Of a stretch of 40,050 nt of DNA, positions 15,763 through 17,604 are shown one piece after another. Each line of letters opens with the position of its first letter. Position 1 is the first letter of the stretch. The translations under genes and the position numbers were made by a program. Location: sequence record MN080711.1. One strand, 5' to 3'. The notes under the pieces are model-generated. The model was not told where the DNA came from. It ran no database searches and saw nothing but the letters and a program-made list of their open reading frames with translations. Origin of the DNA: Escherichia phage vB_Eco_D226.

Positions 15763-16353
15763 TTAGCGAGACAGAAGACCACCAGTGAAGGCATCACCAT
15801 CAAGCATGTTGAAGTTACCGAAGTCCAGTTCATACTCGGCACATTGCATCTTCGCTTCTTGCTCTTCTTCGGATAATACAGCGTCAATCTCAGGTGCTCC
15901 AAAGAATCGGTTGTTAAACTGTCGAGCAGCCTTGGTGACAATCCAGTAGCGGAAGCATTCCGGCATCTCGTAGAACTCTCGCAGTTTGATAATTGTCACT
16001 GTGATAGGTTCCTTAAAGACATCGGTACGATTGTCCCGGTCATACACGTAACCACCACGGTTAACATAGGCAGTGGCACCGCCATCCGAGAACACAGCCA
16101 AGTAGTCAGACATATAGGGAATCAATCCGTTGAACACATCAGGGAGCAACTGTTGGCCTTCCTCAATGTTGAACGTCCAGCCCTTAGATTGAATCTGACG
16201 GTTAATCTTATTGAGGATACGCCTAGCGTTCGCTACGTCTGCGTTGGCATCACCCTCAAGGGTCGATACTGGAGGTTCACCGATAGAGGCCAAGATGTCG
16301 TTGACAGCAGCCAACTCTTCACCTGTCTCAAGCGTTGTTTCATATGAGCGCAT
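15763..16353 (-). CDS. 11: Tail tubular protein A (gp11)
   Basis: 196 aa from MRSY...; [49 protein letters not shown] matches T7 gp11. Confidence 0.95.
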
Positions 16354-16382
16354 AGTTAAATGTCCTCCCATTAGTGAGTTGA

Positions 16383-16426
16383 AAAAAAAAACCCTCAAGC
16401 ACCCGCGAAGGCACCCAAGGGGTTTC
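16383..16426 (-). terminator. Tphi-like terminator for phage RNAP after the capsid gene
   Basis: Transcript reads AACCCCTTGGGTGCCTTCGCGGGTGCTTGAGGG followed by nine U; resembles T7 Tphi. Confidence 0.7.
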
Positions 16427-16435
16427 ATATAGTTA

Positions 16436-17604
16436 TCATTCAGTAGCAGCTAACTCAGCTTCCTTTAGAGCCTTGTTTGCCGCACGGGTACGGGCAGCTT
16501 TCTGTTGTGGCGTTAGCTCTTGCTCAACTTCAGTAAGGGACTCAGTGTCCCCTACTAGTTTGCGAGAAGTTAAGACTTTTTGAAAACCAGCGCACCTACA
16601 GCTTCAGGGCGAAGACCACCGTGACCCATCGCGTACTTAGCGATAATCTGGTCAGCCTGATAGTTAGCACGACGAGCACGTTCCAGAGCCATGTCTTTCA
16701 GCTTCACAGTACCAACGGCAGAGCGGTGACAGAACAGACCGACAACGGTGTCCAGAGCAACCTTAGTGTCACCAGAGGCAGTCGTAGGGAATGCGTGTTT
16801 CTGGTTGGAGGTAGACTCTTCACGGTCATCGCCAGCACCACCAGCAGTCAGGTGAGGAACTTCGATTACTTCAAAGCCCATGACGTTGCGGATAGAACCA
16901 GTAGACGGGTCAATCAGTGCCTGATAGTTAGCAGCGTTAGGCATCAGAGCAGCCAGAATCGCGGAGTAGTTATCAGGAGTGGTGTAGAAGGTACGGTCAG
17001 CAGACGGAACATAGTTCTTAGTCAGACGAGCACGAGCCAGAGTCAACTGTGCAATAATTGCCTGACCCAGCTTCACTTGGTCGCCTTGCAGGTTTTTGGC
17101 TTCGCCAACTTCCAGAACACTTGCAGTACCCAAGCCAGCGATGTTCTCGTTGCTCGCAGACGGCAGGTTACACAGTTTAGCCATTTCAGCCAGAACCGCG
17201 CCATCAGCAGCCAGAGCCAGAGACTCACCCAACTGTGCAGTGTACTCAGAACGCACGTCATAGTGGTTCATAGCGTCTTCGATGTCGTAAATCAGAACGT
17301 CAGCAGTCAGCAAACCATCAATGTTAATGGTCTTCTCAGTGTGCTTCATGTCTTTACGTTTGTCATCTAGGTTCTCACCCGGTTGTAGATAAGCAGCTTT
17401 GGTACGACCCAGCACAGGGAACTGCGCGGACTTACCGGACTGAATAGAACGCACGAGGTGTTTGTTCATAGTTACGGAAGTACGAGTAAACGCGGTCAGA
17501 ACTTCACCACCGAATACTTTCAGGAACAGAGCCAGTTTATCACCTGCGCTCATGCCTTTACCTTGGTCTTTACCAATCTGCTGTCCACCAGTCATGTTAC
17601 CCAT
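16436..17604 (-). CDS. 10B: Minor capsid protein 10B, made by -1 ribosomal frameshift near the end of 10A
   Basis: The -1 frame starting within CTG GTT TTC AAA (about 16582) reads [48 protein letters not shown]; the [22 protein letters not shown] tail matches the T7 10B C-terminus. Confidence 0.6.
16570..17604 (-). CDS. 10A: Major capsid protein 10A
   Basis: 344 aa; [17 protein letters not shown]... (T7 tag region MASMTGGQQMG) and similarity throughout. Confidence 0.97.
   Translation of the reverse strand: MGNMTGGQQIGKDQGKGMSAGDKLALFLKVFGGEVLTAFTRTSVTMNKHLVRSIQSGKSAQFPVLGRTKAAYLQPGENLDDKRKDMKHTEKTINIDGLLTADVLIYDIEDAMNHYDVRSEYTAQLGESLALAADGAVLAEMAKLCNLPSASNENIAGLGTASVLEVGEAKNLQGDQVKLGQAIIAQLTLARARLTKNYVPSADRTFYTTPDNYSAILAALMPNAANYQALIDPSTGSIRNVMGFEVIEVPHLTAGGAGDDREESTSNQKHAFPTTASGDTKVALDTVVGLFCHRSAVGTVKLKDMALERARRANYQADQIIAKYAMGHGGLRPEAVGALVFKKS

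Follow-up and report, generated by a model that had tools for sequence, protein, structure and literature searches.

Does the major capsid gene of Escherichia phage vB_Eco_D226 (D226; record MN080711.1) specify one protein or two, and, if two, by what route would ribosomes enter the second reading frame? Gene 10 of phage T7 is subject to a -1 programmed ribosomal frameshift, reportedly described by Condron, Atkins and Gesteland in 1991. For D226, a first-pass annotation of the DNA analysed here, a stretch of 40,050 nucleotides that we refer to as the window, had placed a programmed -1 shift at the end of gene 10A. The coordinates given there are exact, but it is the minus strand that carries the feature, a point the annotation had left unstated. 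A shifty heptamer in the proper register, a tail under selection, the absence of a start codon, a 3′ structure and a Tphi terminator are all present, and on these features of the sequence we consider a T7 gene 10-type programmed -1 ribosomal frameshift in D226 to be highly probable (roughly 0.9). The elements concerned are collected in Table 1.

Gene 10A and its extension in the -1 frame

The 10A reading frame was classified as Gp10A-like by Pfam (PF21703, E=1.8e-107), and a search of the PDB returned the T7 gp10A structure 2xvr (E=1.7e-169); the PDB held only models of 10A length and no solved structure with a 10B tail. Synteny likewise identifies it as a major capsid gene of T7 type, with gene 9, gene 10, Tphi and gene 11 arranged as in the records of BA14, Kvp1, FE44 and BP12A. 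D226 is a Berlinvirus. The best match among deposited genomes over 25 kb has ~92% identity across ~89% of the query, and gene 10 is 95% identical to that of Salmonella phage RN5i1 and ~90% identical to those of BA14, Kvp1 and FE44.

The 3′ end of 10A (16590..16570, minus strand) reads CTG GTT TTC AAA AAG TCT TAA, letter for letter as the annotation had it. In the -1 frame, 55 codons are open, from about codon 334 to a TGA at 16438..16436 that is followed directly by a TAA, and 44 of them extend past the 10A stop. A shift at F341 would yield complement(join(16436..16582,16582..17604)), that is, 341+48 = 389 aa, with predicted masses of 41.6 kDa for 10B and 36.7 kDa for 10A. The 48 open shifted codons and the 389-residue product that had been proposed are thus recovered exactly by counting sense codons after F341, and the length of 398 aa quoted for T7 10B agrees with the RefSeq join. 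The 10B extension had also been called shorter than that of T7; it is (48 aa vs 56 aa), but as a Berlinvirus-wide trait and not one specific to D226. We estimate the probability of an open -1 overhang of 44 codons arising by chance at ~0.1, which makes the open frame weak evidence when taken by itself.

Table 1 Features of the gene 10 frameshift region of D226
Feature	Coordinates	Strand	Basis
Gene 10A, major capsid protein, 344 aa	17604..16570	-	zero frame; ORF list, Pfam and PDB
10A stop codon, TAA	16572..16570	-	sequence
10B -1 extension, 48 codons + TGA	16436..16582	-	sequence; homology to T7 tail
Primary slip heptamer G_GUU_UUC, Val340-Phe341 codons	16588..16582	-	sequence; register as in T7
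Second candidate C_AAA_AAG (A_AAG tetranucleotide type), weaker	16582..16576	-	sequence
SD-like AGGUG, uncertain, probably incidental	16593..16597	-	sequence
Two-part stem-loop, predicted 3′ stimulator	16574..16523	-	fold, covariation, covariance model
Conserved 10B tail core, 16 residues	16469..16516	-	31 loci, third-position variation
Tphi-like intrinsic terminator	16382..16422	-	terminator scan, fold; annotated in BA14, FE44 and T7

We therefore turned to the shifted-frame peptide itself. As the annotation had claimed, it matches the T7 10B tail (BLASTP, E=2e-10, 18/26 identical). The two tails share a homologous core; the T7 tail is longer, and the N-terminal halves are unrelated in sequence. 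We compared the core across 31 loci (19 distinct DNA versions, at least six genera), which were chosen by a motif regular expression and represent all T7-type tails found. Variation was concentrated at third codon positions (15/16 variable), with first and second positions variable in 6/16 and 4/16 codons, respectively. Among pairwise codon differences, 1171 were synonymous and 176 nonsynonymous in the -1 frame; the corresponding counts for the two remaining frames were 54/1203 and 44/1158. The synonymous excess is confined to the -1 frame and is located outside the stem-loop described below. Judged by this pattern of substitution, purifying selection acts strongly on the 48-aa tail in the -1 frame.

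How is this frame reached? None of the codons ATG, GTG, TTG, CTG or ATN occurs within the 55-codon -1 ORF of D226, and the program-made ORF list (at least 30 aa) has no entry for the -1 tail region. Because it lacks a start-type codon, the -1 ORF would be reachable by recoding only. A reading without recoding would make it a decaying relic or a separate small gene, its conservation being due to constraints on RNA structure or terminator. The tail is in fact annotated as a separate small CDS in ETEP21B, fPS-53, PGX1, DU_PP_II and AP5, and the tail of one relative, L014, holds an internal stop. Against these points stand the missing start codon and ORF entry, a synonymous excess seen in the -1 frame alone and outside the stem-loop, and the 10B protein of Kvp1, which has been proven by mass spectrometry (MS). 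We regard an explanation without recoding as extremely improbable, and rejected an independent small gene for want of a start codon. Chance was rejected as the origin of the -1 ORF on the basis of homology and frame-specific selection; that the ORF is no accident follows also from the absent start, from the single GGTTTTC in the window and from the association of heptamers with tails among relatives (both below).

The gene 10 frameshift is already known within Berlinvirus, where it is both annotated and proven by MS/MS. Joined 10B CDSs are annotated in Kvp1 and FE44, the BA14 record mentions a 'slippery sequence' and a product 'similar to C-terminal tail of gp10B', and in the BP12A record the same bases are labelled a 'potential frame slippage site'. 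In Kvp1, a 43.6-kDa band was seen above Gp10 on SDS-PAGE, and peptides identified by MALDI MS/MS span 10B residues 327-372 (PMC2579914). The MS of virion proteins that the first-pass annotation had proposed as a check on 10B is thus already done for this congener. By homology with T7 and Kvp1, 10B is probably made in D226 as well; T7 makes it at about 10% (PMC1635266; PMC4177731), and a similar level would be expected in D226.

Kvp1 and FE44 resemble D226 in GGUUUUC, stem-loop and terminator, at ~90% nucleotide identity over gene 10. Their 10A and 10B proteins have 347 aa and 392 aa, compared with 344 aa and 389 aa in D226. The D226 tail differs at 3/48 residues from that of Kvp1 or FE44, one stretch reading ANKALKEA in D226 and ANKARKEA in the other two, and at 2/48 from that of RN5i1.

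Separate small CDSs named 'minor capsid' or 'head protein' cover the tail in OR979722 (ETEP21B), NC_047936 (fPS-53, g033), OQ703770 (PGX1) and NC_047886 (DU_PP_II), as well as in the AP5 paper (PMC4283147). This separate annotation of the 10B tail is probably a recurrent misannotation.

In a wider survey of 71 IMG/VR loci and the reference phages, retention of a shifty heptamer went together with a long -1 ORF carrying a recognisable tail. The tail-bearing lineages had GGUUUUY, CCCAAAG (T3), GGUAAAG or GCCAAAG, and their tails were T7-type or Ig-like; lineages with a degraded GGUCUUC (as in Klebsiella phages; a synonymous change that is the natural state of Przondovirus) lacked a long tail ORF. 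T3 and phiYeO3-12 resemble D226 in the gene used, in the position near the 10A stop and in having a minor extended capsid protein. T3, however, combines C_CCA_AAG with an Ig-like tail about 90 aa long (its -1 frame runs for 85 codons past the 10A stop). D226 has neither, both of which are carried by T3 and by loci L022-L026; it has instead a poly-U/Phe site and the short helical-type tail of T7.

Two IMG/VR loci, L011 and L012, both have a 10A that is 96% identical to that of D226 and yet carry unrelated -1 tails behind GGUUUUC, one a beta-rich tail of 90 codons and the other a T7-type tail of 41 codons. Here 10B tails appear to have been exchanged as modules with the slip site retained. In L014 (IMGVR_UViG_2700988866, ~1724-1797; the position corresponds to ~16525 in D226), a GAG codon of the -1 frame is changed to TAG. 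The stop leaves a 10B tail of 15 codons beyond the 10A stop and also undoes a base pair in the outer helix. Either L014 can do without the tail or the change is a sequencing error; since this relative carries a premature tail stop, the 10B tail would not be strictly essential. In the Yersinia phages PYPS50, PYps49T and AKS2022HT54S, the match to the gene 10 3′ end and terminator is split in two by ~170 extra bases, and there is an additional 'hypothetical protein', which suggests that DNA has been inserted between 10A and gene 11.

Two candidate slip sites

GGTTTTC occurs once in the window (40 kb, both strands) against 4.7 expected occurrences, and it was present in each of 100 shuffles. The heptamer may be avoided outside gene 10, although the statistics are marginal. 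The copy in 10A is identical to the slip site of T7, which is G_GUU_UUC (PMC5009743), and has the same codon register, three to four codons before the 10A stop (10A of T7 has 345 aa). In Kvp1, the shift was placed 'at TTTTCA', a poly-U/Phe site such as phiA1122 also has, whereas T3 and phiYeO3-12 shift at lysyl sites (PMC2579914).

The first-pass annotation had counted two candidate slip sites in this stretch, the second being C_AAA_AAG, which overlaps the first by one base. Either site gives a 389-aa 10B, and the products differ only at residue 342 (Q from G_GUU_UUC, K from A_AAG). The two sites differ in conservation. G_GUU_UUY was retained by every relative with a T7-type tail that we examined, with the exception of BA14. 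The AAAAAG on its 3′ side, by contrast, varies: the sequence is AACAAG in Kvp1, AACGAG in L106, AAAACG in L013 and P1338, CACAGCG in L012, AAGACA in DU_PP_II and AAAGUG in T7. T7 accordingly continues with AAA GUG after the heptamer, where D226 has the extra A_AAG, and Kvp1 lacks the second site, having AAC AAG in place of AAA AAG. Because the adjacent C_AAA_AAG is not conserved, we favour G_GUU_UUC as the working site.

Could the shift nevertheless occur mainly at C_AAA_AAG? A single tRNA-Lys would then slip from AAG to AAA, perhaps with the aid of the SD-like AGGUG, and 10B would carry K342. E. coli dnaX offers a parallel, with a possible tRNA-Lys slip from AAG to AAA, an SD-like element upstream and a 3′ hairpin; the SD spacing in dnaX is 10 nt, and in D226 AGGUG stands 10 nt 5′ of CAAAAAG and 4 nt 5′ of GGUUUUC. 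In BA14, moreover, UUC is replaced by UUA, so that G_GUU_UUC is lost while perfect U_UUA_AAA and A_AAA_AAG sites are created at the same spot. A_AAG is a documented shifty tetranucleotide that promotes -1 shifting in E. coli also where the P-site codon cannot re-pair, as in A_CGA_AAG and G_CGA_AAG (PMC5009743). Several observations speak against the lysyl site, however. AAAAAG is missing from Kvp1, L012, L013, L106, DU_PP_II and T7, all of which keep 10B, and Kvp1 demonstrably makes the protein. Whereas dnaX, like BA14, has a true A_AAA_AAG, the D226 sequence is not a full X_XXY_YYZ heptamer, for the P-site AAA tRNA would have to pair with CAA and could not do so. The stem-loop begins 1 nt after CAAAAAG, in contrast to the hairpin ~6 nt from the site in dnaX, and so falls outside the usual range of 5-9 nt. 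AGGUG, finally, is present in RN5i1 but absent from BA14 (UGGCG), BP12A (AGGCG) and Kvp1, and was set aside as a stimulator owing to this lack of conservation.

Taken on their sequence features, the Phe site G_GUU_UUC is quite likely to be the main slip site, while a shift occurring chiefly at the Lys site is improbable; C_AAA_AAG is possibly a contributor, and at most a minor one. Of the two sites proposed, only the first is fully borne out, given the P-site mismatch of the second, its poor conservation and its distance of 1 nt from the stem-loop.

The same runs of bases invite a different explanation, in which the phage RNA polymerase adds one nucleotide within the U4 or A5 run and so brings the tail into frame. 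T4 and A5 runs are present (A6 in BA14), but runs of this length are short for productive slippage, which counts against such an origin. In Kvp1, the A run is broken (AACAAG) and 10B is still made. Slippage in transcription would also leave no role for a covarying 3′ stem-loop at the spacing of a ribosomal frameshift. It is a known alternative route to such products and falls within the scope of a recoding review (PMC5009743), in which the T7 event is treated as ribosomal. We consider transcriptional slippage very improbable in D226, and ribosomal frameshifting at G_GUU_UUC remains the preferred reading.

A predicted stem-loop upstream of the Tphi terminator

Folding of 16590..16500 (minus strand) gave a structure of 19 bp with a minimum free energy of -26.9 kcal/mol (z=-2.78). 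Its outer helix of 9 bp (CUUAACUUC/GAAGUUGAG) holds the UAA stop of 10A, and its inner helix of 10 bp (AGUAGGGGAC/GUCCCUUACU) closes a loop ACUGA, with a 9-nt bulge on the 5′ side between the helices. The stem-loop starts 7 nt 3′ of GGUUUUC, and the usual spacer between a heptamer and a 3′ structure is 5-9 nt (PMC5009743). Where the outer helix of Kvp1 and FE44 (10 bp) has a G at its base, that of D226 (9 bp) has a U, and D226 also has an extra A-U pair that joins both helices.

We examined the stem-loop in a gap-free alignment of ten distinct sequences, comprising Berlinvirus variants, the Helsettvirus fPS-53 and the Unyawovirus DU_PP_II. Across these three genera, 94.7% of the cells were paired, and 9/19 pairs had changed on both sides. 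None of 500 shuffles did as well, and slid registers were 30-57% paired. With fPS-53 as the sole diverged lineage, four pairs covaried. The covariation appears strong yet phylogenetically thin, as it comes from two diverged lineages (fPS-53 and DU_PP_II) and from a stem that overlaps coding sequence. The peptide encoded across the stretch is poorly conserved among relatives, and the differences between close relatives map to the loop and the spacer. Poor conservation of the peptide, covarying pairs and variation in loop and spacer together suggest that the RNA itself is under selection.

A covariance model recovered the stem-loop in Berlinvirus, fPS-53 and DU_PP_II. In T7 (E ~0.9), PGX1 and AP10 it gave marginal scores only and did not recover a homologous structure. 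When folded separately, T7, AP10, L029, L011 and L027 showed analogous long hairpins 4-6 nt after the heptamer, and the separate folds of K1F and L044 showed no significant local structure. A long imperfect hairpin whose 5′ arm contains the UAA stop is thus predicted for T7 and D226 alike. Since the T7 structure cannot be aligned and K1F has no significant structure, not all members of the family have a proximal hairpin. When IMG/VR was scanned with a pattern for more distant copies, only the lineages already known and unrelated chance matches came up, and Rfam, run over the whole window, found no family at gathering score and terminator hits at chance level only.

The proximal stem-loop goes unmentioned in the Kvp1 paper (PMC2579914), the AP5 paper (PMC4283147) and the Atkins 2016 review (PMC5009743). 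The one structure remarked on by the authors of the Kvp1 study is a 'pseudoknot' 144 bp downstream (PMC2579914), which corresponds to the terminator. On homology and the sequence comparisons above, we think it somewhat probable that the hairpin acts as a frameshift stimulator.

A second element may bear on frameshifting. The Tphi-like terminator of D226 consists of a 13-bp stem (16421..16392) and a T10 run (16391..16382), and its CCCC (16422..16419) lies 160 nt 3′ of the heptamer. In T7, Tphi with its CCCC likewise stands just past the 10B stop, but more than 200 nt from the site, and this CCCC has been implicated in frameshifting in a manner that is still unexplained (PMC5009743; our statements on the T7 stimulator rest on this review). 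The reported T7 stimulator is in other words distal, whereas D226 has a predicted proximal stem-loop. By analogy with T7, the Tphi CCCC of D226 might also contribute. The inner helix has a GGGG in its 5′ arm that is conserved across Berlinvirus, Helsettvirus and Unyawovirus, and a long-range pairing of this GGGG with the CCCC of Tphi is conceivable. The full combination, namely that the stem-loop is an undescribed proximal stimulator in Berlinvirus, Helsettvirus and Unyawovirus, that its GGGG might pair with the Tphi CCCC, and that two 10B isoforms (Q342 and K342) are made, seems to us unlikely to hold as a whole.

The D226 terminator departs from those of its relatives. It reads GAGGG and then T10, where the terminators of all close relatives read GAGGGG and then T6-7; the stem is thereby one G-C pair shorter and the U tract longer. 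Just past the terminator, the sequence at 16355-16381 (minus strand), ...CAACTCACTAATGGGAGGACA, resembles the 3′ part of the Kvp1 phi11 promoter (TAATAGACTCACTAATGGGAGGA), the 5′ part being replaced by a T run. The start codon of gene 11 is the ATG at 16353..16351 (minus strand); the listed ORF, 15763..16428, begins further upstream.

Proposed route to 10B and its significance

We propose the following course of events. Most ribosomes on the late capsid mRNA would stop at the UAA of 10A and release the 344-aa protein. A minority would stall with their P site occupied by tRNA-Val on GUU and their A site by tRNA-Phe on UUC, held by the 19-bp two-part stem-loop at the mRNA entrance, 7 nt downstream. 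Both tRNAs would then move one base back and re-pair on GGU_UUU, and reading would resume with CAA AAA GUC ..., bypassing the 10A stop inside the stem. The added 48-residue tail, rich in Ala, Lys, Arg and Glu, would give 10B (389 aa, 41.6 kDa) as a minor, co-assembling capsid species. The terminator region possibly also promotes slippage, and A_AAG may yield a small share of 10B with K342.

In an annotation of D226, gene 10 ought to be given a joined CDS for 10B, not 10A alone or a separate small 'minor capsid' ORF. The stimulators of the T7-type frameshift have never been fully explained, and the choice between Phe and Lys sites drifts among close relatives, as in BA14. The comparison of relatives supplies a concrete and testable proximal RNA element for this classic frameshift, and pairing between GGGG and CCCC, if true, would provide a structural explanation for the long-range effect of the T7 terminator. 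The short 10B tail would also be a natural display position if Berlinvirus phages were engineered as T7Select-like vectors.
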